In this document: positions 2,673 through 22,099 of the stretch, in pieces
Layout of the letters: every line of letters starts with the position of its first letter
Numbering within the stretch: the first letter of the stretch is position 1
Source of the DNA: Thermotogota bacterium
Lineage (GTDB): Bacteria > Thermotogota > Thermotogae > Petrotogales > Petrotogaceae
Length of the DNA stretch: 24,986 bases
Reading direction: 5' to 3'
Assembly (NCBI GenBank): GCA_051748045.1
Contig: JBNJGY010000028.1
Coordinates: forward strand, 1 to 24,986
The notes under the pieces: generated by a model
The model's database searches: none
What the model saw: the letters and a program-made list of their open reading frames with translations, nothing else
Told to the model about the DNA's origin: nothing
Translations under genes and position numbers: made by a program

Positions 2673-2900
2673 ATGAACGTTAAAATTCTCGGTGGAGGAT
2701 GTGCAAAATGTAACAAATTAGAAAAAAACGCTATAGAAGCATTAAATGAAATGGGTAAAGAATATGAAATCGAGCATGTCACAGATTTTGCAGAAATAGC
2801 AAAGTTTGGAGTTATGTCAACTCCAGCATTGGTAGTAGATGGAAAAGTAGTGGTATCAGGAAAAGTATTAAATGCTTCAAAATTAAAAGATTTATTGTAA
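2673..2900 (+). CDS. Small redox-active disulfide protein (thioredoxin-like, MTH895 type) of ars clusters
   Basis: 75 aa, ILGGGCAKC...GVMSTPALVVDG; RBS AGGAGG. Confidence 0.9.
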   Translation: MNVKILGGGCAKCNKLEKNAIEALNEMGKEYEIEHVTDFAEIAKFGVMSTPALVVDGKVVVSGKVLNASKLKDLL

Positions 2901-2921
2901 AAATCAATAAAAAAAATAACT

Positions 2922-2955
2922 AAAAGTGGTAAAACTCCAGTTTTACCACTTTTTT
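2922..2955 (+). terminator. Rho-independent terminator
   Basis: AAAAGTGGTAAAACT-CC-AGTTTTACCACTTTT perfect inverted repeat followed by a T tract. Confidence 0.85.
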
Positions 2956-2957
2956 AC

Positions 2958-2986
2958 TTGAATTTTTTTGTAAAAAAAGTTAAAAT
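2958..2986 (+). promoter_or_regulatory. Putative promoter of the crt operon
   Basis: TTGAAT-17 bp-TAAAAT just after the terminator; the AT-rich background weakens the call. Confidence 0.45.
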
Positions 2987-3078
2987 TAACTTAAGAAAAG
3001 ATTTTAAATAGAAACAATAAATGATTTTAATAAAATGTATTTAATTAAAATATTGTGAATTTTCTGGGAGGGATTATT

Positions 3079-4578
3079 TTGTCAAAAAAAGTTATCGTTG
3101 TAGGCGCTGGTACAGCAGGACTTGCAAGCGCTATAAGACTTCAAAATAACGGATATGATGTAGAAATATATGAGAAAAATCCAAAAGTTGGGGGAAGGAT
3201 GTATCAAATTGAAGAAAAGGGTTTTAAATTTGATGTTGGCCCGACTATTGTAATGATGCCTGATGTATATAGAGAAGTTTTTGAACAAACAGGTAGAAAT
3301 GCAGAAGATTATATTCCAATGAAAAAACTAAATCCAATATATTCAATACAATATACAAAAGATGAATCCTTAGATGTATCAACTGACCTTGCTGACCTGA
3401 CTAGTTTTTTAGAGGATATAAGTGAAGAAGATACTCTCGGATATTATAGGTATTTAACACAAACTTATAAAAGATATCTTATAGCAAAAAAACATTTCAT
3501 AGAAAAATCCTTCAGAAAACCAAGTGATTTTTATAATTTAAAAACTCTTATGAATGCATATAAATTAAAAACTTTTAATAATGCATACAATGAAATATCA
3601 AAGTTTGTTAAAGATGATAGATTAATGAAAATGTTGAGTTTTCAAACACTATATATTGGAATATCTCCTCATAATGGTCCTTCTATTTATACAATAATAC
3701 CTATGATAGAAACTATTTATGGTGTTTGGTATATACAAGGCGGTATGTACACAATGGCTACTTCTATGGCTAAGCTATTTGAAGAATTAGGTGGAAAAAT
3801 ACATCTAAACTCTGAAGTAGAAGAGCTAATTATAGATGACAAAAAAGCTGAAGGGATTGTTGTAAATGGACAAGTTATTGACGCAGATTATGTTATTGTT
3901 AACGCGGATTTTCCATATGCAATGAAGACTCTAATTAAAGATGAAAATAATAGGGGAAAATATACAAATGAAAAAATAGATAGTATGGATTATTCTTGTT
4001 CTGTATTTCTAATGTTTTTAGGATTAAAAGAAAAAGTAAGTGATGATACAAGATTACATAATATAGTTTTTGCAAATGATTTTGAAAAAAATATTTCTGA
4101 TATTTTTGATGGTCAAGATCCAAAAGATCCATCAATTTATATGTATATTCCAACAAAAGAAGATAAAAGCTTAGCACCGTTAGGAAAAGAAACTATGTAT
4201 GTTTTAGCTCCTGTTCCAGAACTAAAAACTAGGGGTAACAAATGGACTCAAGAAGAAATAAATGATTATAAGAAGATAGTATATGATAAAATAAAGATGA
4301 AAAAGGGATTAGAAAATATTGAAGATATGGTTGAAGTAGAAAAAATATATACTCCAAATAATTTTGAAAGTGAGTTTAATGCCATGAATGGAGCCACCTT
4401 TGGACTAGCCCCAACATTGATGCAGAGTAATTATTTCAGACCTCAAAATAAGTTCAAATATTCTGAAAATCTTTATTTTACTGGTAGTTCAGTTCATCCA
4501 GGTGCTGGTGTTCCAATAGCGCTGACTTCTGCTAAATTAGCTGCGGATGAACTTATGAAAGACGATAAATATATTTAA
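3079..4578 (+). CDS. crtN: 4,4'-diapophytoene desaturase (CrtN/CrtI family)
   Basis: FAD motif VVGAGTAGL; FDVGPTIVMMPDVY, RKPSDFYN, FQTLYIGISP..GPSIYTIIPMIE and C-terminal GSSVHPGAGVP closely match Firmicute CrtN as recalled. Start TTG 3079 follows GGGAGGG. Confidence 0.88.
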   Translation: MSKKVIVVGAGTAGLASAIRLQNNGYDVEIYEKNPKVGGRMYQIEEKGFKFDVGPTIVMMPDVYREVFEQTGRNAEDYIPMKKLNPIYSIQYTKDESLDVSTDLADLTSFLEDISEEDTLGYYRYLTQTYKRYLIAKKHFIEKSFRKPSDFYNLKTLMNAYKLKTFNNAYNEISKFVKDDRLMKMLSFQTLYIGISPHNGPSIYTIIPMIETIYGVWYIQGGMYTMATSMAKLFEELGGKIHLNSEVEELIIDDKKAEGIVVNGQVIDADYVIVNADFPYAMKTLIKDENNRGKYTNEKIDSMDYSCSVFLMFLGLKEKVSDDTRLHNIVFANDFEKNISDIFDGQDPKDPSIYMYIPTKEDKSLAPLGKETMYVLAPVPELKTRGNKWTQEEINDYKKIVYDKIKMKKGLENIEDMVEVEKIYTPNNFESEFNAMNGATFGLAPTLMQSNYFRPQNKFKYSENLYFTGSSVHPGAGVPIALTSAKLAADELMKDDKYI

Positions 4579-4587
4579 GGGGAATAT

Positions 4588-5418
4588 ATGAGTTTAAAAG
4601 ATGATTATAAATATTGCCAAGAGATTATAAAAGAAAATTCAAAAACATTTTATAAAGCCTTTTCTTTACTTAAAAAAGAAAAGGCTAATGCTATATACGC
4701 AGTTTACGCTTATTGTAGAGTAACTGACGATTCAATTGATGTGTACAATTCTCCAGAAAAATTAGAAAAACTAGCAAATCAACTACACAATTTTGAAAAC
4801 GGAAATATTCCTAAAGAACCATTGTGGAGAGCTTTAAAAGATGTTTTTGACAAATTTAATATGGATATAAAGCCTTTTTATGAAATGATTGAAGGCCAAA
4901 AAATGGATATAAATTATACACAACCAAAAACTCAAAAAGATCTTTTGAATTATAGCTATTATGTTGCTGGTACTGTAGGCAAAATGATACTACCTATTAT
5001 AGCTTCAAAAAATATAAAAAACATAAAAAAAGATAAAATAAAATTAGGTGAAGCTATGCAAATAACAAATATTTTAAGAGATATTGGGGAAGATTATGAA
5101 AATGGAAGAATATATATTCCAGAAGAAATAATGCAGGATTATAATTACAATAAAAAAGATCTTGAAAAGAAAATAATTAACAATAATTTCAAAAAAATGT
5201 GGGAATATGAGGCGAAACAAGCGCAAAAAATGTATGATAATTTTTATACTATGATTGATTTATTCGATGAAGATTCTAAAAAACCCGTATTAGCTTCTGC
5301 AAAGTTATATAATGCAATATTAGATGAGGTTAGAAAAAACAATTATGATTGCTTGAATCAAAGAAATTACGTTAATAATATTGAAAAAATTAAAATAATT
5401 TCTAAAATAAAAAAATAA
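4588..5418 (+). CDS. crtM: Dehydrosqualene (diapophytoene) synthase, phytoene/squalene synthase family
   Basis: SKTFYKAF, YAYCRVTDDSIDVY, YSYYVAGTVG, MQITNILRDIGED...GRIYIP; two Asp-rich motifs. Confidence 0.85.
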   Translation: MSLKDDYKYCQEIIKENSKTFYKAFSLLKKEKANAIYAVYAYCRVTDDSIDVYNSPEKLEKLANQLHNFENGNIPKEPLWRALKDVFDKFNMDIKPFYEMIEGQKMDINYTQPKTQKDLLNYSYYVAGTVGKMILPIIASKNIKNIKKDKIKLGEAMQITNILRDIGEDYENGRIYIPEEIMQDYNYNKKDLEKKIINNNFKKMWEYEAKQAQKMYDNFYTMIDLFDEDSKKPVLASAKLYNAILDEVRKNNYDCLNQRNYVNNIEKIKIISKIKK

Positions 5419-5431
5419 TGGGGGAATAAAA

Positions 5432-6094
5432 ATGAATACTTGGGGGATTATTGCATCTTTCGCCTTTATATTTTCAATAATAGGTATTTCAACCTTATTA
5501 ACTAAAAAAAACATTTTAAGTGGTGAAGGTTCAAGAAAGTTTATACATATAGGAGTCGCGAACTGGTGGATTATTGCGATGATTTTTTTTGATAATCCTT
5601 TGTGGGCTTCAATAGTTCCAGCTTTGTTCATAATAATAAATTATATTTCCTATAAGAAGCAAGTTTTTAAAGCTATGGAACGCGGAAAAGGTAAGAGAGA
5701 TTTAGGTACAGTTTATTACGCAATTTCTTTATTTATATTGGCGATTATAACTTTTTCTGAAGGTATGGATTCTTATGTTGGTGCTATGGGTATTCTCATA
5801 ATGGGTTATGGAGATGGATTCGCTGCAATAATCGGTGAAAAATATGGTAAACATAGTTTCACAGTTATGAAGAGCAAAAAATCATTGGAAGGATCAGCGA
5901 CAATGTTTGTTGTTTCTTTCTTTGTGGCTTTAATCATTTCTTTTTTAGCGGGAAATTCATGTATATACCTATTGCCTCTTAGTTTAGCAATGATAGCAAC
6001 ACTTGTTGAAATATTTTCACCTTATGGCACAGATAATTTAACCGTTCCTTTAGTGACATCATTAGCTTATTATTTTTTATGGTGTTCTTTTTAA
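5432..6094 (+). CDS. CTP-dependent prenol/polyprenol kinase (SEC59/DGK1/VTE5 family)
   Basis: Membrane protein with SRKFIHIG, GYGDGFAAIIG, KSLEGS and DNLTVP motifs typical of phytol/dolichol kinases. Confidence 0.85.
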   Translation: MNTWGIIASFAFIFSIIGISTLLTKKNILSGEGSRKFIHIGVANWWIIAMIFFDNPLWASIVPALFIIINYISYKKQVFKAMERGKGKRDLGTVYYAISLFILAIITFSEGMDSYVGAMGILIMGYGDGFAAIIGEKYGKHSFTVMKSKKSLEGSATMFVVSFFVALIISFLAGNSCIYLLPLSLAMIATLVEIFSPYGTDNLTVPLVTSLAYYFLWCSF

Positions 6095-6184
6095 GAAAAA
6101 TTATCTAAATCGATTTCATATTTTAACAATAAACTAATAGAATTTAATTGAGATAAAATAACTCAACATTGAGGTGTTATAAAT

Positions 6185-6997
6185 ATGAATTTAATAATTG
6201 GACTAATTCTTGGATTGATGATTGCTTTTGTAGCATATAAGAAAAATGCATTGAGTAAAAGTGGAACTGTAGCTGCCACTTTACTAGGAATTTCACTGTA
6301 TTATTTTGGTGGATTATATTTTTTTCTAATAATGATATCTTTTTTTATATCTTCTACTTTATTGACTAAGTATAAGAAAAAGAAGAAGATTGAGTTAGAA
6401 AAAATACACGATAAAACGGGAAGAAGAGATTATACTCAAGTATTAGCGAATTCTTTGCCTGCAATTATATATGCTCTTTTCTTTTATTATACCCGTATGA
6501 ATGTATTTTTACTTGGTTTTGCAACCACTTTTTCAGCTACAAATTCAGATACATGGGCTTCTGAATTGGGGGTTTTAAGTAAAAATGATCCTTCTTGTAT
6601 TTTAACAGGAAAAAGAGTACAAAAAGGCATGTCGGGAGGAATTACTAAATTTGGAACTTTTGCTTCGTTTTTGGGAGCTTTATTTTTATCTTTTGTTTTT
6701 ATGATTGGTTATATCATAAAGTTTCAAAATCAAATAGTTATAAAAGATCTTATAATTCTTTCAATTTTAACACTTATTGGAGGGTTTTTAGGTTCAATTA
6801 TAGATAGTTTACTAGGTGCTTCTATCCAGGGGATATACAAACATAGAAAAACGAATGAACTTACAGAAAAAAGATTTGATGAAGACGAAGAAAACAAATT
6901 AATTAGAGGGTTTAAGTTCATAGATAACAATTTAGTAAATCTATTATCTTCATTAACAGCAAGTCTTTTAATGATGCTAATTTATATATTCGTATAA
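6185..6997 (+). CDS. DUF92 (COG1836; TMEM19/VTE6-like) membrane protein, candidate prenyl-phosphate kinase
   Basis: GRRDYTQVLAN, SDTWASELG, GMSGGIT..GT, GFLGSIIDSLLGA..Q and NNLVN motifs of DUF92; RBS GAGGTG. Confidence 0.85.
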   Translation: MNLIIGLILGLMIAFVAYKKNALSKSGTVAATLLGISLYYFGGLYFFLIMISFFISSTLLTKYKKKKKIELEKIHDKTGRRDYTQVLANSLPAIIYALFFYYTRMNVFLLGFATTFSATNSDTWASELGVLSKNDPSCILTGKRVQKGMSGGITKFGTFASFLGALFLSFVFMIGYIIKFQNQIVIKDLIILSILTLIGGFLGSIIDSLLGASIQGIYKHRKTNELTEKRFDEDEENKLIRGFKFIDNNLVNLLSSLTASLLMMLIYIFV

Positions 6998-7003
6998 TTA
7001 CCC

Positions 7004-7034
7004 AAAACCAGCTGCTTTATGCAGCTGGTTTTTT
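7004..7034 (+). terminator. Rho-independent terminator closing the crtN-crtM-kinase-DUF92 operon
   Basis: AAAACCAGCTGC-TTTAT-GCAGCTGGTTTTTT. Confidence 0.9.
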
Positions 7035-7055: not shown

Positions 7056-7119
7056 GTGTTTAGTAATAGTAAGTTTATAAATATATATTTATAATGATAA
7101 AAAATATGAGGTGATTATT

Positions 7120-7809
7120 ATGAGTGTATTAAAAATTTCAAATGTTGAAAAAAGTTATGGAAAAGGTGAAACAAAAATAAAAGCTCTTAAAAACATGAAT
7201 TTAACTGTTAATGAAGGAGAATTTATGAGTATTGTTGGGCCTAGTGGTTCTGGTAAATCAACACTTTTAAACATACTAGGCTGTATAGATAATCCAACAT
7301 ATGGTGAAATATTTATTGAAAATGAAAATGTAACTAAATTAAATGACAAACAAATGGCAATATTCAGAAGAAGAAAGTTAGGGTTTATTTTTCAATTTTA
7401 TAATTTAATCCCTGTATTAACAGCTGAAGAAAATGTTCTTTTTCCTTTGATGTTGGATAATAGAAAAGCTGATATTAATTACATTTATAAAATAATGGAT
7501 ATATTAAAAATAAAACATAGAAAAAATCATTTCCCTCAGGAACTAAGTGGGGGAGAACAACAAAGATTTGCAATAGCAAGAGCTTTAGCCACAAAACCCT
7601 CTTTAATTTTAGCTGATGAACCGACAGGTAATTTAGATTCTAAAAATTCTGAAGAAGTAATAAATTTAATGATTGAAATGCACAAAAAGTTTAATCAGAC
7701 AATAATTATGGTTACTCATAATCATGAAATAGCAGAAATCGCTTCAAGAAAAATAGAATTAGTAGACGGAGAAATTGTTTCTGATGAAAGGATGCTTAAA
7801 AATGGCTAA
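7120..7809 (+). CDS. ABC transporter ATP-binding protein (LolD/MacB/BceA-like)
   Basis: Walker A GPSGSGKS, GFIFQFYNLIP, LSGGEQQR, ILADEPTGNLD, VTH; ATG 7120 follows GAGGTG. Confidence 0.95.
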   Translation: MSVLKISNVEKSYGKGETKIKALKNMNLTVNEGEFMSIVGPSGSGKSTLLNILGCIDNPTYGEIFIENENVTKLNDKQMAIFRRRKLGFIFQFYNLIPVLTAEENVLFPLMLDNRKADINYIYKIMDILKIKHRKNHFPQELSGGEQQRFAIARALATKPSLILADEPTGNLDSKNSEEVINLMIEMHKKFNQTIIMVTHNHEIAEIASRKIELVDGEIVSDERMLKNG

Positions 7810-10174
7810 GTTTGATTTTATTTCAACTCGATTTTTGAAGAAAAATAAGAAAAGATCAATATCAATTTTATCTACTATTATAATATCAGTTGCATTAATA
7901 ACAGGGATATTAAACTATGGCCTTTTATATAGAGAGCTAAATTTACAAGAGATGTATAAAAAAACAGGAGAATACCATGGAATAGCTAAAGATATATCTC
8001 AAGAAAAAATAAATAAAATACAATCCAATTTTCAAGTTGAAAAGACTGGAGAGTTTAAAATTTTTGATATTTTGGAAAATAACTCAACTTATTTGAGAAA
8101 AATAAGACTAACTTGGATGGATAAAAAAGCTTTAGAGATAAACAAAATTACAGTCATAAATGGAAAGATGCCTGATAATAAAAATGAAATTTTAATGGAA
8201 AAATGGATGGCGGAATACTTGAACAAAAAACCTGGAGATGAAATAGATTTCAATAATTATTCTTTATTTACTGTTTCTGGAATAATAGAAAACATAACAG
8301 GATCTCGATTAAGAGGAGAAGGGTTGGTAATAACAAAAAATAAAGAATTTATAAAATCAAATAGAGATTTGTTAATTAAAATTAACTCCAACAATATCGA
8401 AAAAGACTTAAATACATTAATGAAAAATTACGATATAAAAGATTATTCTGTAAATTATAGTCTTTTACAATATTTGTCAGAAAGAGATTTATTTAGTTAT
8501 CCAGTTTTATTATTGATAATACTATTATTTTTAGTTTCTACATCTTCTATTATGAGTATATATAACATGTCAATAGTTGAAAGGATCAAAGAAATAGGAA
8601 TGATAAGAGCAATAGGGGGAACAAAAATACAAATCAAAAAAATATTATACAAAGAAAATTTTATTTTAATATTTTTGGGATTACCTTTTGGGTTATTTTT
8701 AGGGCATATACTACCTTATTTTTTTGGAATGATCTTTAAAATAAATATCACATCATTCATAATAAACCCTTATGTAATATTTTCTGTTGTTTTAATGGGA
8801 ATTATATCTGCTTTAATTTCATCACGAAAATCAATTAAAACAGCTTTATCTTTGAGTCCTATGGAAGCAATAAAAAAAGAACCTAATGATGAAAAACAAA
8901 GAATAGTAAATGAGAATTTAATGTCAAAAATATTTTATAAAATTTTTGGAGTTAAAGGAAAAATAGCATATAAAAATTTGAAAAGAAACGGGAAAAAATC
9001 GACAGCTACTATTTTCACTATGGCTTTAATGGTCACTCTTTTTATAACATTTAGTTTTGTTATTAAAAGCATGAATTCATCTTTTGTAGCTTCTCAATAT
9101 GTAAAAGGTGATTTTGAAATAAGGGATGAAAGTAGAGTCCAAAATGCTGGTTTTAGTAAATCACAGGTAGAAGAATTAAGTTATTTTAAGAATATTAAGG
9201 ACATAAAATTGATGAAAAAAACTATAGTAAAATTCCCTTATAATGAAAAAGATATTCCAGAATTTTATAAGACAATGGCAAAAAAAATTACAGAAAATGG
9301 GAAAACATATTATACCTTAAATTCAGATATTTATGGATATTCCAAAAAAATGATCAAAGAAATGGAAAGTTTTTTAGTTTCTGGAGAAATTGATCTAAGC
9401 ATTATGAGTTTGGGAAATTATGTTTTAATACCAAAATCTTATTCAGAGCAGAACAACGTTTCTGTTAACGATGAGATATGGGTATATAATGATGATGAAA
9501 AAATAAAATTTATAGTAGCGGGCATATATAATAAAATTCCATATACCTTTTCATACCACAATATTGGTGAAAGACTAATAATATCTAATAATACATTTTC
9601 AGAAAATTTTAAAGATGATAAATATAAAAAAATTGTAGTTGAAACAAAAGAAGACATAGACAAAAGTGAAATGATATTAGCTCTTTCAGAATTTGCTTCA
9701 AAAGTATCAGGTGGACAAGTTATTTCTTTTCAAGAAGAAGTTGAAAATTTGAACAATCAAGTTAGAATCGTCTCTTTTATAGGTAATTCTGTAATAATAT
9801 CAATTTTAATTCTAAGTATATTTAGTTTATCTAATACTATAAACACAAATATTCTTTTAAGAACAAGAGAACTCGGTTCTATGAGGGCACTTGGGTTGGA
9901 TAAAAAAGGTTTAAAAACCTTAATTTCTATTGAAGGATTATCATTTGGATTAATAGCTTCTTTTTGGGGAATAATTTTTGGCAGCATATTTGGAGTGGCA
10001 TGGTTTGCATTGATGAGAATAACACAAGATGCCTTCTTAATTTTTAAAGTTCCCTATTTATATCTCATTTTGACTCCAATAGTGGTAATTTTTTTAGGTT
10101 ATTTAATCACCTTGATTTCAATACAAACAATAAATAAAAAACCAATAATTGAAATGGTAAAAAATAATGAATGA
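7802..10174 (+). CDS. ABC transporter permease, FtsX/MacB-like with two permease domains
   Basis: Duplicated architecture with ERIKEIGMIRAIG and RTRELGSMRALG, and large extracytoplasmic loops; start overlaps the end of the ATPase gene. Confidence 0.9.
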   Translation: MAKFDFISTRFLKKNKKRSISILSTIIISVALITGILNYGLLYRELNLQEMYKKTGEYHGIAKDISQEKINKIQSNFQVEKTGEFKIFDILENNSTYLRKIRLTWMDKKALEINKITVINGKMPDNKNEILMEKWMAEYLNKKPGDEIDFNNYSLFTVSGIIENITGSRLRGEGLVITKNKEFIKSNRDLLIKINSNNIEKDLNTLMKNYDIKDYSVNYSLLQYLSERDLFSYPVLLLIILLFLVSTSSIMSIYNMSIVERIKEIGMIRAIGGTKIQIKKILYKENFILIFLGLPFGLFLGHILPYFFGMIFKINITSFIINPYVIFSVVLMGIISALISSRKSIKTALSLSPMEAIKKEPNDEKQRIVNENLMSKIFYKIFGVKGKIAYKNLKRNGKKSTATIFTMALMVTLFITFSFVIKSMNSSFVASQYVKGDFEIRDESRVQNAGFSKSQVEELSYFKNIKDIKLMKKTIVKFPYNEKDIPEFYKTMAKKITENGKTYYTLNSDIYGYSKKMIKEMESFLVSGEIDLSIMSLGNYVLIPKSYSEQNNVSVNDEIWVYNDDEKIKFIVAGIYNKIPYTFSYHNIGERLIISNNTFSENFKDDKYKKIVVETKEDIDKSEMILALSEFASKVSGGQVISFQEEVENLNNQVRIVSFIGNSVIISILILSIFSLSNTINTNILLRTRELGSMRALGLDKKGLKTLISIEGLSFGLIASFWGIIFGSIFGVAWFALMRITQDAFLIFKVPYLYLILTPIVVIFLGYLITLISIQTINKKPIIEMVKNNE

Positions 10175-10199
10175 GATTTACTCATTCATTATTTCTTTT
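10162..10199 (+). terminator. Hairpin/terminator overlapping the permease stop codon
   Basis: AAATAATGAATGAG-ATTTA-CTCATTCATTATTT 14-bp stem followed by CTTTT. Confidence 0.6.
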
Positions 10200-10233
10200 A
10201 TTGTATAATTAAAATTGAGTGGGGGTGAAATAT

Positions 10234-10914
10234 ATGAAAATATTGTTAGTTGAAGACGATGATTCTTTAGCAACAGGGATTATGTATGCTCTGGGGAAAG
10301 AGAATTGGAAAATAGAGTCAGTTATTAATAAGAAACAAGCTTTGGAAAAGATAAACAATAATTCTTATGATTTCTTTTTGTTAGATATTATGTTACCTGA
10401 TGGGAATGGGTTTGAGATTTGTGAACACATAAGAAAAGAAAAAGATTCTCCAATAATATTTTTAACAGCGAGAGATGAAGAGGTAAACATCATAAAAGGT
10501 TTAGATATGGGGGCAGATGATTATATAACAAAACCTTTTAGTATAGGAGAACTTACTTCACGAATAAAAGCTATTTATAGAAGAGTTAATAATAAAAATA
10601 ATGATTTATTAGATTTTGGCAATATTAGAATTAACTTAAGTAAACAAGAAGTAAAAAGAAACGGAGAATTAGTAAAGTTAACTCCTACAGAGTTTAAAAT
10701 TTTGAATATTTTATGTTTAAACAGTTTAAAAGTTATGTCTAAAGAAAAAATCATACAGTCATTATATGATGCTGTAGATGAAATGTATGATGAAAATACG
10801 CTTTCTGTGTATATAAGAAGGTTAAGAGAAAAAATTGAAGAAAATCCATCAAAACCAAAATTAATAAAAACAATTCGAGGTTTGGGGTATAAATTTGATA
10901 AAAGGAGAGTGTGA
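10234..10914 (+). CDS. OmpR/PhoB-family response regulator
   Basis: MKILLVEDD, LLDIMLPDGNG, FLTARD, GADDYITKPF, and wHTH VYIRRLREKIE...IKTIRGLGY. Confidence 0.95.
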   Translation: MKILLVEDDDSLATGIMYALGKENWKIESVINKKQALEKINNNSYDFFLLDIMLPDGNGFEICEHIRKEKDSPIIFLTARDEEVNIIKGLDMGADDYITKPFSIGELTSRIKAIYRRVNNKNNDLLDFGNIRINLSKQEVKRNGELVKLTPTEFKILNILCLNSLKVMSKEKIIQSLYDAVDEMYDENTLSVYIRRLREKIEENPSKPKLIKTIRGLGYKFDKRRV

Positions 10915-10915
10915 T

Positions 10916-12130
10916 ATGTCAGATTTAATAAACTATAAAAATAGAAATTTAATTTCTATTTTGATTATATTCTATGTAATAATAACATTTTCTATTTTTT
11001 TTAGTTATAGTAAATCAATGGAAAATATAATTAAAAATAGAGATTTATATATAATAAATAATCTGGCTGAAAAAAATCCTGAAATAGAAACAGAAATAGT
11101 TAATACTTTTAAAAATGCACAAAGATCAAACAATACAGATATTATAAATAATTATAATATTTCTGAAGAATACTCTTTCCAAAATGAAGGTTTCAATGCT
11201 CAAAGAAATAAATCTATTTTTTATTTAATTATAATTTCAACATTTATTGGAATTATTATATTCATATTTCAAGACAAAGTGTTTAAAGATATAGAAAAGA
11301 AGTTATATAAATTGATTCATTACATTGATAAAGCGATGAATTTAGAATTTGAATTTTTAGATGAAAAAAATGAAGAGGGGGCTATTTATCTTTTATATAC
11401 GCAATTTAACCTGATGGCAAGAAGGTACAATAATAATTTAGAGAAAATGAAAGAAAATCATCATTATTTAAAAGATCTTATATATAACCTGTCTCACCAA
11501 TTAAAAACTCCGATATCTTCTATAAAAATCTTCAATGAAATTATGATAGATGAAAAGGATTATAAGGAAGAAAAAACAGAAGAATTTTTATTAAAATCTA
11601 AAAAACAAATAAACAAAATTGAATGGATAATTAAGAAAATGTTTGAAATTTCAAAAATAGAAAACGATGACATAAGGTTTAAAAAAGAACTAGTGAATTT
11701 AAATGATTTAATAGAAGAAATAATAATAAATTTTCAGCATATAATTTCTGACAAGAATCTCCAAATAATCTATGATGTAAAATCAAATGCAGATATTTTA
11801 TTAGATAAAAACATGATAAAAGAAGCACTTTCAAATGTAATTGAAAATGCTTTAAAATATTCTTTTAAAAATGAAAATATTATTCTATCAGTTTTTGAAG
11901 AAAAATCTAATCTTATTTTTTCTGTTAAAGATAAAGGAATAATTATAGAAAGCTCATTTAATAAAATATTTTCAAAATTCTATAGAAGTAAAGATGCAAA
12001 AACTAAAAATCCTGAGGGAACAGGATTAGGATTAGCTTTTGCAAAGGTTACTATAGAAAAAAATAATGGTGAAATAAGTTATAAATCAAATCCAGATTGT
12101 ACTGAATTCATAATTAAGTTTCAAAAATAA
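10916..12130 (+). CDS. Sensor histidine kinase (two TM helices, HisKA, HATPase)
   Basis: H-box LSHQLKTPIS, N-box NVIENALKY, F-box IFSKFYR, G2 GTGLGL. Confidence 0.92.
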   Translation: MSDLINYKNRNLISILIIFYVIITFSIFFSYSKSMENIIKNRDLYIINNLAEKNPEIETEIVNTFKNAQRSNNTDIINNYNISEEYSFQNEGFNAQRNKSIFYLIIISTFIGIIIFIFQDKVFKDIEKKLYKLIHYIDKAMNLEFEFLDEKNEEGAIYLLYTQFNLMARRYNNNLEKMKENHHYLKDLIYNLSHQLKTPISSIKIFNEIMIDEKDYKEEKTEEFLLKSKKQINKIEWIIKKMFEISKIENDDIRFKKELVNLNDLIEEIIINFQHIISDKNLQIIYDVKSNADILLDKNMIKEALSNVIENALKYSFKNENIILSVFEEKSNLIFSVKDKGIIIESSFNKIFSKFYRSKDAKTKNPEGTGLGLAFAKVTIEKNNGEISYKSNPDCTEFIIKFQK

Positions 12131-18843: not shown

Positions 18844-19785
18844 TTATTTTACAATTGTAGTTCCTGTTTTTCCTTCTAATGCTTCAGTTAATTTTTGCAT
18901 ATCTGTTATTAAAGCTGGGTTTCCACTTTCTTTAACAAATGAAAGACAAGCTTCTATTTTTGGAAGCATACTTCCTTTTGCGAAATGTCCTTCTTCCATA
19001 TATTTTTCTGCTTCTTCAACAGTTATTTCATCCAAATCTTTTTGGTTTTCTTTTCCAAAATTAAGAGATACTTTTTCAACAGCGGTTAAAATAATAAACT
19101 CATCAGCTTTTAGATCTTTAGCCATTAAAGCAGAAGCTCTATCTTTATCTATAACAGCCTCAACGCCGATAATCTTCCCATCTTTTTTGATGACAGGAAT
19201 ACCGCCACCGCCACCAGCGACTACTAAGAAATCTTCATCTACTAATTTTTGGATAGATTTTTTTTCTATAACTTCTAAAGGTATTGGTGATGGAACAACT
19301 CTTCTCCATCCTCTTCCAGAATCTTCTTTGAAATCCCAGCCTTTTTCATCTTGTAATTGTTTTCCTTCTTTTTCAGTATAAAATGGTCCAACTGGTTTTG
19401 ATGGATTTTTAAAGCCTTCATCTTTTTCGTCTACAACAATTTGGGTAACAACTGAAGCTATTTCTTTTTCTATTCCTCTTTCAACTAAAATATTTTTCAA
19501 AGATTTCATAATCATATAGCCCAAGTATCCTTGAGTCATAGCACCGTTTATGTCCATTGGAAATGGAGGTACTTTTTCTTTTGCTAAGTCTTGTTGAATT
19601 AAAATATTACCAACTTGTGGGCCATTTCCATGAGTTATAACAATATCATAATCTTTTTCTATCATATCAGCTAAATAACTTGCAGTTTCAGAAATATTTT
19701 TTAACATGTTTTCTGCATTAGGAACTTCACCAGGTCTGTTAACAGCGTTTCCACCTATTGCAATAACTGCTAATTTTTTTGACAT
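18844..19785 (-). CDS. arcC: Carbamate kinase
   Basis: VIAIGGNA, ITHGNGPQVG, PSKPVGPFY, GRGWRRVVPSP, GGGGIPV, EAVIDKD, GSMLPKIEA; ATG 19785 follows AAGGAG. Confidence 0.97.
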   Translation of the reverse strand: MSKKLAVIAIGGNAVNRPGEVPNAENMLKNISETASYLADMIEKDYDIVITHGNGPQVGNILIQQDLAKEKVPPFPMDINGAMTQGYLGYMIMKSLKNILVERGIEKEIASVVTQIVVDEKDEGFKNPSKPVGPFYTEKEGKQLQDEKGWDFKEDSGRGWRRVVPSPIPLEVIEKKSIQKLVDEDFLVVAGGGGGIPVIKKDGKIIGVEAVIDKDRASALMAKDLKADEFIILTAVEKVSLNFGKENQKDLDEITVEEAEKYMEEGHFAKGSMLPKIEACLSFVKESGNPALITDMQKLTEALEGKTGTTIVK

Positions 19786-19819
19786 TTTCTCAACTCCTTT
19801 TTTCATTGTTAGAAATGAA

Positions 19820-19839
19820 AGACGGGATTTCTCCCGCCT
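19820..19839 (-). other. Intercistronic GNRA-capped hairpin between arcB and arcC
   Basis: Minus strand AGGCGGGA-GAAA-TCCCGTCT followed by TTCATTTC. Confidence 0.6.
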
Positions 19840-19860
19840 AAATATATTCTTTGAAATTAA

Positions 19861-20850
19861 TTATCCGTGAATAGTTGCAACCATTACAGCTTTAATAGTA
19901 TGCATTCTATTTTCAGCTTCGTCAAAAACTTTTGAATGTTTGCTTTCGAATACTTCATCAGTAACTTCCATTTCAGAAATTCCAAATTTTTCATAGATTT
20001 CTGCACTAACAACAGTATCAGTGTTATGGAATGAAGGAAGACAATGTAAGAAATTCACATCTGGATTATTTGTTTTTTTGATCATATCCATGTTTACTTG
20101 ATATGGTTTTAATAATTTTATTCTTTCCTCGAATTGGTCTTCTTCTCCCATTGATACCCAAACATCAGTGTAGATAACGTCAGCATCTTCTACTGCGTTA
20201 ACATCATCTGTAATAGTAATTGAACCACCAGATTCTTTAGCAACTTCTCTCATTTCGTTTACTAAATCTTCTTGTGGGTATAATTCTTTTGGAGAAATAG
20301 TAACAAAATCCATTCCCATTTTCGCTGCACCAATCATTAATGCGTTACCCATATTGTTTCTTCCGTCACCAACATAAACAAATTTAACTTTATTTAATGG
20401 TTTATTTATATTTTCCATAACTGTTAAGAAATCAGCTAAAACTTGTGTTGGATGATCTAAATCTGTTAAACCATTCCATACAGGAACTCCTGCATTTTCG
20501 GCTAAGTCTTCAACAGTTTCTTGTTTGAAACCTCTGAATTCTATACCGTCATAATATCTACCTAAAACTCTTGCTGTGTCTTTTATTGTTTCTTTTTTAC
20601 CCATTTGAGAATTAGACAAGAAAGTAACGTGAGCACCTTCGTCTAAAGCGGCAACTTCAAAAGCAGCTCTAGTTCTTGTTGAGTTTTTTTCAAACAATAA
20701 AACTATGTTCTTACCTTCGAGCATGTCTCCTTTAATACCCATTCTTTTCTTTTGTTTCAAGTCTTTAGAAAGATCCAACATGTATTGGATTTCTTCTCTA
20801 GTGAAATCTTTCAAAGTTAAAAAATGTCTTCCTCTTAAATTTACAGGCAT
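19861..20850 (-). CDS. arcB: Ornithine carbamoyltransferase (catabolic by context)
   Basis: [48 protein letters not shown]; lies between arcA and arcC. Confidence 0.96.
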
Positions 20851-20881
20851 TAAAATCCCTCCTATGTTATTTGATGTTGTA

Positions 20882-22099
20882 TTATTCTCTAAATAATGGC
20901 ATACTCATACACCTTGGTCCGCCACGACCCCTTGAAAGTTCACTGGATTCTATTTCTAAAACTTCTACTCCGTGATCTTTCAGTAATTTATTTGTAATGA
21001 TATTTCTGTCATAAGCGATGATTTTTCCAGGTTCTATAGCAAGAGCATTTGAACCATCGTTCCATTGTTCTCTTGCTGCAGCGATTTCATCTCCATCTCC
21101 ACATTTTATTAATGTTACTTTGTCTACATCTAAATGTTTTTCTAGTATTTTATTTAAAGAACCAGTTTCTTCTTCAATAGCATAATCTGATTCATCTGTC
21201 TTTTTAAGAACAAAGATTTTCATGGCATCTTCTAATTCAGAGTGAACTACGAATTTATCATAATCAACCATTGTAAATACAGTATCAAGATGCATGTAAG
21301 CTCTTTTTGCTGGAATTAAAAAACCAAGAATTGTATCAAAGCTATCCTCGTATTCTTTGAATATTTTGTCTGCTAAGGTTTCGAGTGCTTCTGGGTCTGT
21401 TCTCTCAGAAATACCTACAGCAATTGTTTTCTCGTCTAGGACTAAAATATCTCCACCTTCAACTGCATAAGGAAATGATTTTTTATAATACAAAGGAGTT
21501 TCTTTGAAATCTGGATGATATTTTAAAACGTATTCCATAAGCATTGATTCTCTTCTTCTTGCTGGTGTTCTCATTCTATTGATTGAAGCACCTTTACCAA
21601 TCATAGCAACAGGATCTCTTTGAAAATAAAGATTTGGCATAGGATTCAAAAAGAATGGTATATCCATGTTAGATTTTCTTACTTTGACAGAAAAAATTTC
21701 TTTTTTTAGATCAAGTTCATTAGTTCTTACTCCAGCTATCATCTTTGCAACCATGGATTTTGTATCCATAGAAAAAAGATAATCTTCTAAAGAAGATTTT
21801 ATAATTTGATTATTTATTTCTGACATTTCAAGAAATTCATCTAAAAAAATCTTTTTGATATTATCTTTTTCCAAAGTTTGTTCTAAAAGATTTGAAATAT
21901 AGTAAACCTTAGAACCATTGTCTTCTAAAACTTTTGCGAACATATCGTGTTCTTCCTGTGCTTTTTTAAGAAAAGGAATATCATCAAAAAGCAAATCAGA
22001 TAAATAATTTGGAGCTAGATTTTCTAGCTCTGCTCCAGGTCTGTGGAGTAAAACACTTCTTAACTTCCCTATTTCAGAATAAACTCTTATAGGCACCAA
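20882..22099 (-). CDS. arcA: Arginine deiminase
   Basis: [67 protein letters not shown]. Confidence 0.98.

Follow-up and report, generated by a model that had tools for sequence, protein, structure and literature searches.

In the available part of a 2022 review, the salvage of farnesol and geranylgeraniol is called a 'missing pathway', with kinase genes for both steps known only in plants and cyanobacteria; the same part places the plant phytyl-phosphate kinase VTE6 in COG1836, and reports it was predicted from comparison with bacterial genomes (PMC9782597). One Plasmodium kinase was added in 2024. PfPolK of Plasmodium falciparum is described, in the excerpt available of PMC10849223, as a cytidine triphosphate (CTP)-dependent farnesol/geranylgeraniol kinase. 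As for C30 carotenoids, the crtM and crtN genes of Eubacterium limosum, when expressed in aerobic Escherichia coli, gave 4,4'-diaponeurosporene via 15-cis-4,4'-diapophytoene, according to the accessible section of PMC11611032, a paper in which the words kinase, farnesol, operon, adjacent, flank and neighbour do not occur. The present analysis concerns contig C28 (JBNJGY010000028.1; the window, i.e., the whole stretch of 24,986 nucleotides) of a 2.41-Mb, 99.65% complete Thermotogota genome (GCA_051748045.1, Petrotogaceae), in which four same-strand genes at 3079-6997, namely crtN, crtM, a prenol kinase candidate and a DUF92 gene, are enclosed by two hairpin terminators. The main new result is the conserved linkage of these four genes, which combines two known kinds of system, a prenol salvage pair and the C30 carotenoid genes. 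The preliminary description of this DNA knew of no characterised example of such a coupling, and our literature searches likewise found no paper describing carotenoid or crtM genes with a prenol kinase-DUF92 (VTE6) cassette. The unit is made up of the following features.

2922-2953, called on the minus strand: palindromic hairpin terminator of 14 pairs with T runs on both sides, which closes the upstream arsR-permease-thioredoxin-like genes and forms the left border of the unit
2954-3078, plus strand: leader and putative promoter region, in which a GGGAGGG ribosome site precedes the TTG start
3079-4578, plus strand: crtN, 499 amino acids
4588-5418, plus strand: crtM (the SQS_PSY gene), 276 amino acids
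5432-6094, plus strand: prenol kinase candidate (gene 3), a polytopic membrane protein of 220 amino acids
6095-6184, plus strand: spacer of 90 bases, with a ribosome site GAGGTG ahead of the DUF92 start
6185-6997, plus strand: DUF92 prenyl-phosphate kinase candidate (gene 4), a membrane protein of 270 amino acids
7004-7032, plus strand: intrinsic terminator of 12 pairs (6 of them G-C) with a T run, the right border

The intergenic gaps, read directly, are 9, 13 and 90 bases, and a purine-rich ribosome site lies ahead of each of the four genes. Four co-oriented genes with these gaps and bounding terminators had been noted in the preliminary description, and the open reading frames, gaps and hairpins were all reproduced, the latter at 2922-2953 and 7004-7032. 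The crtN reading frame opens at GTG 3055, and the TTG at 3079, behind GGGAGGG, was taken as the start. The left hairpin is nearly unchanged in the same-genus genome G001. Promoter-like hexamers are found in the leader at 2958-2986 and 3009-3036, in a region where such sites occur at chance level (38 found against 40.7 expected in this AT-rich DNA); terminator-like hairpins number three in 6.5 kb, against 1.6 expected. A terminator-like site was searched for in the 90-base spacer and none is present. Judging from the spacing and the lack of an internal terminator, the four genes would be carried on one transcript. No island is visible in the base composition, with a GC fraction of 0.26-0.29 over the unit and its flanks.

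Conservation of the linkage was surveyed from two sides. Among 60 related genomes, the four genes are syntenic in G002, G003, G004, G005 and G016, and in G012 up to the contig end; these belong to four genera, and CrtM identity ranges from 79% down to 51%. On the crtM side, the best 80 crtM loci were retrieved from one-genome-per-species contigs with an alignment as the query (a single-protein query yielded 3 loci). All four genes are found at 15 of the 80 loci, crtN-crtM-kinase up to the contig end at 1, crtM-kinase-DUF92 at 1 and crtN-crtM-DUF92 at 2, while 58 loci carry crtN and crtM only and 3 carry crtM only. The linked loci, 19 of the 80, come from Thermotogota, Clostridium sp., Tissierellales, Eubacterium callanderi, Acetobacterium, Eubacteriales, Erysipelotrichaceae, Oceanispirochaeta, Acholeplasma, Acholeplasmataceae, Izemoplasmataceae and Mariniplasma; the remaining 61, which lack the pair, are nearly all Lactobacillales or Bacillales by record title. 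A neighbourhood survey of other genomes had been set beforehand as a test on which the preliminary description was prepared to be refuted, and the linkage was recovered in these six related genomes and 19 crtM loci, from at least four phyla. Given the same four genes adjoin in many other genomes, the arrangement is far beyond chance.

Gene order varies among the linked loci: Acholeplasma granularum has the kinase first (kinase-crtN-crtM-DUF92), and Soehngenia and Clostridium sp. SGI.024 have an inverted crtN. The linkage has therefore outlasted rearrangement. Adjacency of crtM to the kinase-DUF92 pair persists down to approximately 40% CrtM identity, over at least four phyla. In Eubacterium callanderi the order crtN-crtM-kinase-DUF92 is as here, with identities of 58, 46, 55 and 42%, respectively. 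As a side observation, the reading frame directly after crtN-crtM-kinase-DUF92 in Acetobacterium bakii (L156, 6970-7911) has a tocopherol-cyclase-like domain (PF14249, 58.7 bits), which is odd in an acetogen and may represent a further tailoring step.

A CrtM tree of 87 distinct rows was built with a quick method, with branch support from the Shimodaira-Hasegawa-like approximate likelihood ratio test only and an uncertain root. In it, the 24 linked rows form a basal grade. The unlinked rows number 61, 59 of which are Lactobacillales or Bacillales, the other two being the decayed copy of G023 and a distant SQS_PSY outgroup; two rows had no room on their contigs for linkage to be scored. We hold tentatively, and regard as possible, a reading in which the kinase-DUF92 pair is integral, and perhaps ancestral, to the CrtM route to C30 carotenoids, the four proteins forming a membrane pathway from farnesol via farnesyl phosphate and farnesyl diphosphate to diapophytoene and diaponeurosporene. 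On this reading, the pair accompanies each CrtM copy in the tree that comes from beyond the Lactobacillales and Bacillales and has sufficient flanking sequence, and would have been lost in those two orders. If so, this would be the first pair of farnesol kinase and farnesyl-phosphate kinase in non-photosynthetic bacteria, and carotenoid synthesis could be fed by a prenol pool rather than directly by the methylerythritol phosphate (MEP) or mevalonate pathway.

The surveys also bear on the distribution of CrtM itself. CrtM-type synthases of 42-69% identity are present in Thermotogota, in a metagenome-assembled genome of the spirochaete Oceanispirochaeta, and in Mycoplasmatota (Acholeplasma, Izemoplasmataceae, Mariniplasma); in the loci L104, L107, L131, L146, L173, L176 and L178, crtM lies at about 4501-5330 each. 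In Clostridia, too, crtM is found beside crtN. The part of PMC9907078 available to us states that CrtM is confined to Firmicutes and that Clostridia possess CrtN alone. This Firmicutes-only distribution is extended by the loci in Thermotogota, Spirochaetota and Mycoplasmatota.

Beyond close homologues of crtM, a divergent SQS_PSY gene (27% identity, PF00494 162 bits) in G029, a genome from another family of the order, immediately precedes a 493-residue kinase-DUF92 fusion (L095, G029:C25, 3400-5755, minus strand). The best NCBIfam row for this SQS_PSY protein is HpnD, with 108 bits and under cut-off; no desaturase is nearby, and the next gene encodes a seven-transmembrane (7TM)-PAS-GGDEF protein. 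In an even sample of 301 Clostridia genomes, DUF92 was detected in 4, and SQS_PSY likewise in 4, out of 300, one genome being unscored for SQS_PSY; 2 genomes have both, side by side in each case, and the sampling was centred on one of these two.

Loss of the cassette was observed as well. In G023 (L097, G023:C4, 6828-8996), crtN carries a frameshift, crtM is interrupted by two TGA stops and the kinase is reduced to a remnant of about 45 residues. In G009 (L099, G009:C7, 3326-4827), crtN has an internal deletion, codons 1-33 of crtM are joined to kinase residues 141-216, and an intact DUF92 gene lies on another contig (L098). The joint decay of crtN, crtM and kinase in these two genomes counts in favour of coupling.

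The reading we prefer, with a probability of about 0.5, is that C30 carotenoid synthesis is coupled in one operon to a salvage route from farnesol through farnesyl phosphate to farnesyl diphosphate (FPP). CrtM would join two FPP molecules head to head into 15-cis-4,4'-diapophytoene, which CrtN would desaturate to 4,4'-diaponeurosporene and possibly further. The 220-residue membrane protein would phosphorylate a free short prenol, most likely farnesol, with CTP, and the DUF92 protein would add the second phosphate, so that FPP would be re-formed within the membrane in which CrtM and CrtN act. A general prenol-to-prenyl-diphosphate module would, in other words, be attached here to an FPP-consuming pathway. 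Within this scheme, the kinase substrates, the phosphate donor, the feeding of FPP to CrtM, the direction of flux, a part in detoxification and the physiological trigger are what we infer.

The family assignments of crtN and crtM in the preliminary description, a CrtN-type desaturase and a C30-type CrtM, are supported by hidden Markov model searches and alignment. CrtN scores 468.5 bits against TIGR02734 (crtI_fam, cut-off 238.1), matches PF01593 as well, and carries the GxGxxG motif for flavin adenine dinucleotide (FAD) binding as GAGTAG at residues 9-14; it scores under the cut-offs of the CrtID and CrtD models. The closest named protein, from Geotoga petraea, shares 89% identity with it; identities to proteins of Enterococcus, Vagococcus and Alkalibacterium, some of them named dehydrosqualene desaturase, are 57-61%. 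Gene 1 is a CrtI-family protein nearest to the enterococcal dehydrosqualene desaturases, and probably an FAD-dependent 4,4'-diapophytoene (dehydrosqualene) desaturase.

CrtM matches SQS_PSY (PF00494) with 224.3 bits against a cut-off of 26, over profile positions 2-261 of 263. When compared with solved structures, in a list that contained no bacterial CrtB, it scores 251 bits with 5iys, 247 with 8is6 ('CrtM') and 163 with the Staphylococcus aureus dehydrosqualene synthase; the more distant solved relatives are YisP (129 bits), HpnC (73) and eukaryotic squalene synthases (at most 34). Its Asp-rich motifs, D47DSID51 and D165IGED169, align with those of the S. aureus enzyme, and its F25 aligns with F26 of that enzyme (chain 4e9u_A), the 5iys and 8is6 chains also having phenylalanine there. 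Replacement of F26 lets S. aureus CrtM take C20 substrates, and 5iys is treated as a CrtM, in the available part of PMC13304436. Gene 2 is accordingly predicted to be a C30-type CrtM, i.e., a 4,4'-diapophytoene (dehydrosqualene) synthase, and the C30 reading is well supported.

It would be very improbable, in our judgement, for the synthase to be a C40 phytoene synthase (CrtB), with the pair supplying geranylgeranyl diphosphate from geranylgeraniol. The best NCBIfam row is indeed a cyanobacterial CrtB model, yet at 219 bits this is far under the cut-off of 550, and the CrtM of E. callanderi hits the same NCBIfam profile; the title 'Phytoene synthase' of PDB entry 5iys points the same way, although, as noted, the entry is treated as a CrtM in the literature. 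CrtB is ruled out solely because of the retained F26-equivalent phenylalanine, the CrtM tree, where the protein falls inside the tree of Enterococcus, Halobacillus and Planococcus crtM loci, and the Eubacterium precedent: the E. limosum enzymes give C30 products, and its crtE homologues are non-functional for C40, as far as the available section of PMC11611032 goes.

Gene 3 had been described as a SEC59/VTE5-like kinase, and the family is supported by the names of its relatives, by its clamp residues and by fusions to DUF92. It has 3104 relatives in a large protein collection, under names that include diacylglycerol/polyprenol kinase, SEC59/DGK1/VTE5 family, phytol kinase and phosphatidate cytidylyltransferase; the closest named protein is from Geotoga petraea (79% identity), which, as for crtN, marks the host as a Geotoga-like member of the Thermotogota. 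An exhaustive search returned 4117 representative relatives, 137 of which were aligned and used for counts. The DUF92 domain lies in the same chain in 48 of these 137, and PF01148 is matched weakly by 9 (best E 1.2e-05); one relative carries a precomputed PF01148, and a nearest Atlas cluster, 18% of whose members carry PF01148, is named 'Phytol kinase family protein'. R35 is invariant among the 137 sequences, with conservation of 90% or more for K36 and H39. For PfPolK, a 'charged clamp' of Arg29, Lys30 and His33 was proposed from a model to hold the nucleotide phosphates (PMC10849223, available excerpt). R35-K36-H39 has the R-K-x-x-H spacing of this clamp, the two being compared by motif spacing alone. 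Gene 3 is thus a candidate member of the SEC59/DGK1/VTE5-like prenol-kinase group, presumably CTP-dependent. Separately, several genomes of the family without the cassette (L080 = G014:C2, L081 = G017:C1 and others) encode a protein of about 390 residues, the C-terminal part of which matches kinase residues 75-217 at 27-32% identity, a distant paralogue.

Gene 4 matches PF01940, which we take to be equivalent to COG1836, with 235.8 bits against a cut-off of 27.5, over profile positions 3-250 of 251. The earlier assignment to DUF92, the VTE6 family, thus stands far above the gathering score, and the gene is a candidate prenyl-phosphate kinase. A direct sequence search of gene 4 against solved structures returned no match; its structural model (mean predicted local distance difference test, pLDDT, 96.5) has weak fold matches to CdsA (CDP-diacylglycerol synthase) and CarS (CDP-archaeol synthase). 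In a profile-profile comparison of genes 3 and 4 (probability 13.7%, E 0.002), the G-D-x-x-A...G and K/G-x-x-G-S/T regions line up. Taken with the fold matches, this gives a hint, and only a hint, that the two proteins may share a distant ancestry, both with each other and with CdsA/CarS.

Several findings weigh against a coupling of salvage and carotenoid synthesis, the first being how often the pair stands apart from carotenoid genes. Among 53 loci of kinase relatives, the kinase is followed by DUF92 in 26 and accompanied by crtN and crtM in 3. SQS_PSY was found in none of 10 pair-only Clostridia genomes, and the genes flanking the pair-only loci include no other user of prenyl diphosphates, being unrelated (MFS transporters, MscL, Met-tRNA ligase). 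In the kinase tree, crtM-linked and unlinked sequences are interleaved, with 9 parsimony changes, at least 3 of them forced by well-supported branches. Because very similar pairs occur by themselves where the genome has no SQS_PSY gene, the pair is general rather than carotenoid-specific: the kinase-DUF92 pair is a general module, which also stands alone and has been joined to crtNM in a subset of lineages. Hence, the salvage-carotenoid reading of the preliminary description keeps its gene families and its linkage, and loses the idea of a pair dedicated to carotenoids.

Two side observations belong with the stand-alone pair. Candidate-phyla-radiation genomes (L022, L024 and L027, from Shapirobacteria, Saccharibacteria and one further bin) carry a kinase-DUF92 pair with 53% identity to the kinase here, which in L024 is followed by a cyclopropane-fatty-acid-synthase-like gene (PF02353). 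A supposed SQS_PSY remnant before a Desulfosporosinus kinase-DUF92 fusion (L021) was dropped, as it has no open frame.

The stand-alone pairs in Clostridia and the interleaved kinase tree are what one would expect if there were no functional coupling, and a general (poly)prenol recycling pair, serving for example the cell-wall lipid carrier pool or scavenged prenols, merely travelled with crtNM on horizontally transferred DNA. The nearest relatives of the unit's genes are in Bacillota, which makes block transfer plausible, and the Lactobacillales and Bacillales of the crtM tree manage with crtNM alone, as the 58 loci with crtN and crtM only attest. We nevertheless consider this, the main rival, rather unlikely, given the adjacency withstands internal rearrangements and deep CrtM divergence in at least four phyla, the very divergent SQS_PSY gene of G029 also sits beside a kinase-DUF92 fusion, and both families are rare in the Clostridia sample yet co-occur and adjoin. 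Moreover, the undecaprenyl (C55) carrier cycle needs a monophosphate, and making a diphosphate would be pointless there.

The existence of pairs without any SQS_PSY gene also bears on a proposal we regard as improbable, namely that the substrate of the pair is not farnesol but a different alcohol within C30 synthesis. This could be presqualene alcohol, released when presqualene diphosphate is hydrolysed, or a C30 product bearing a hydroxyl group, and the outcome would be rescue of an intermediate, or a phosphorylated polar carotenoid in organisms without the oxygen-dependent CrtP, CrtQ or CrtO. The proposal would fit, indirectly, the gene content of the linked cassettes, which have a single close crtN (at least 45% identity), whereas Bacillales crtM loci carry several extra crtN-family paralogues; no hydratase or hydroxylase is found within the unit, however, and the characterised VTE5, FOLK, PfPolK and VTE6 act on C15-C20 prenols or phytol (PMC9782597, PMC10849223, in the parts available).

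Precursor supply is a second point on which the preferred salvage coupling is weakened. The host genome has IspH, no 3-hydroxy-3-methylglutaryl-CoA (HMG-CoA) reductase, one CdsA and one SQS_PSY gene, the crtM described here. Of the two polyprenyl synthases elsewhere in the genome, the first has its best match in the FPP-synthase subfamily, the second among long-chain types. Judging from these genes, the host is probably capable of de novo FPP synthesis, with no obvious shortage of supply; nor could a source of free farnesol be identified. The preliminary description had pointed to the lack of a prenyl-diphosphate synthase in the unit: none is indeed present there, but the absence is uninformative, because FPP serves metabolism in general and the host encodes both IspH and an FPP-synthase-like protein. 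We also considered the pair as a bypass of the oxygen-sensitive Fe-S enzymes of the MEP pathway. Five linked genomes, host included, have IspH and no HMG-CoA reductase, and IspH is found in 2 of 5 unlinked genomes; the idea was not borne out, Acholeplasma granularum, which is linked and has HMG-CoA reductase and no IspH, being a counterexample.

The kinase assignments have their own weak points. Gene 3 has no sequence match in Pfam, NCBIfam or PDB, and none in Pfam even at E = 10. Its model (pLDDT 95.2) finds CdsA at Foldseek ranks 1-4, with E 0.035-0.2 and probability 0.84-0.92; VIA-align ranks CdsA first (Z 8.5, root-mean-square deviation 5.1, 161 aligned) and CarS fourth (Z 7.3, root-mean-square deviation 3.2, 104 aligned). 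These matches are suggestive, within the range of what a common helical arrangement might give. For gene 4, TIGR00297, a hypothetical equivalog, scores 134.4 bits, under its cut-off of 205.85, and the gene is for that reason placed in the Pfam family only.

Given CdsA and CarS are the only solved structures the gene 3 model resembles, and several database names read 'phosphatidate cytidylyltransferase', gene 3 might be a CdsA/CarS-type cytidylyltransferase, with the unit making a CDP-activated lipid unrelated to prenol salvage. We find this decidedly improbable. A regular CdsA is encoded elsewhere in the genome (PF01148 186.8 bits), while gene 3 has no PF01148 match; gene 3 keeps the R-K-x-x-H clamp, and its relatives are frequently fused to DUF92. 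The structure library searched, furthermore, contained no solved kinase of the superfamily which could have been matched instead.

Three further points count against salvage-fed carotenoid synthesis in this organism. E. limosum is an obligate anaerobe in which no carotenoid was made under strict anaerobiosis, in the section of PMC11611032 available; by analogy, it is uncertain what purpose the complete unit would serve in a strict anaerobe. In the same-genus genome G001 (L096, G001:C5, 6830-8210, corresponding to 2860-5860 here), a single clean deletion of about 2.8 kb runs from just before crtN to about codon 135 of the kinase, the upstream terminator, the leader (conserved at about 2954-3020) and an intact DUF92 gene (86% identical) being retained. 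The loss of crtN, crtM and the 5' part of the kinase is thus one contiguous deletion, silent on function. Lastly, metatranscriptome contigs from salt-lake runs of two studies match the unit with 0-1 mismatches within crtN (4301-4582), the kinase candidate (5435-5678) and DUF92 (6221-7002), and none of them bridges any of the gene junctions; carry-over of DNA is possible in such libraries.

Some observations on expression and decay are of side interest. In G001, DUF92 may now lie directly behind the old crtN leader. One metatranscriptome contig stops at 7002, two bases ahead of the predicted terminator, a weak hint of its use. Metatranscriptome matches at 5004-5043 were dropped as low-complexity noise. 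A very close relative of the host lives in the salt lakes sampled, and the cassette genes may be expressed there.

The rest of the window is of an ordinary kind. Upstream, 1231-2900 holds an ArsR/SmtB regulator, an ArsP_1-type permease and a small MTH895/ArsE thioredoxin-like protein; in the two genomes of the same genus, the trio is 88-95% conserved and immediately precedes the cassette or the scar of its deletion, whereas elsewhere it does not accompany the cassette. Downstream, 7111-12130 encodes a MacB/FtsX-type ATP-binding cassette (ABC) exporter and a two-component system, and 18844-22099 a branched-chain amino-acid ABC importer and the arginine deiminase pathway (arginine deiminase, ADI; ornithine carbamoyltransferase, OTCase; and a carbamate-kinase-like protein), both being ordinary context.

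The cassette sets bacterial candidates for both salvage kinases beside an enzyme with a known substrate, FPP, and a coloured product. This offers a simple read-out, pigment from fed farnesol with de novo synthesis blocked, and adds two unstudied genes to a carotenoid operon recently characterised in a gut anaerobe.

In comparison with known systems, YisP of Bacillus subtilis (SQS_PSY, PDB 3we9) belongs to the CrtM fold family, while the CrtM described here lies far nearer to true CrtM enzymes, with both Asp-rich motifs intact. YisP hydrolyses FPP to farnesol, which would link the SQS_PSY family to free farnesol. PfPolK, likened here by its described motif, is of the same family and size class as gene 3, a polytopic membrane protein with the R-K-x-x-H clamp; unlike gene 3, it is eukaryotic and stands alone, with no partner known for the second phosphorylation. 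The phytol salvage of plants and cyanobacteria (VTE5 or FOLK, then VTE6) uses the same two families in the same order, and follows the same logic of two successive phosphorylations to a prenyl diphosphate for a biosynthetic enzyme. Here, in contrast, the host is a non-photosynthetic anaerobe without a chlorophyll or tocopherol pathway, the consumer is the head-to-head C15 synthase CrtM rather than a UbiA-type phytyltransferase, and the expected substrate is farnesol rather than phytol. Finally, the crtN-crtM genes of Bacillota (Staphylococcus, Enterococcus, Lactiplantibacillus, Eubacterium limosum) have the same enzymes, order, tight spacing, CrtM motifs and F26 equivalent, with 46-58% identity to the Eubacterium copies. 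Although the crtM loci of Enterococcus, Halobacillus, Planococcus and other Bacillales and Lactobacillales are without the pair, in the Thermotogota unit two kinase candidates follow.

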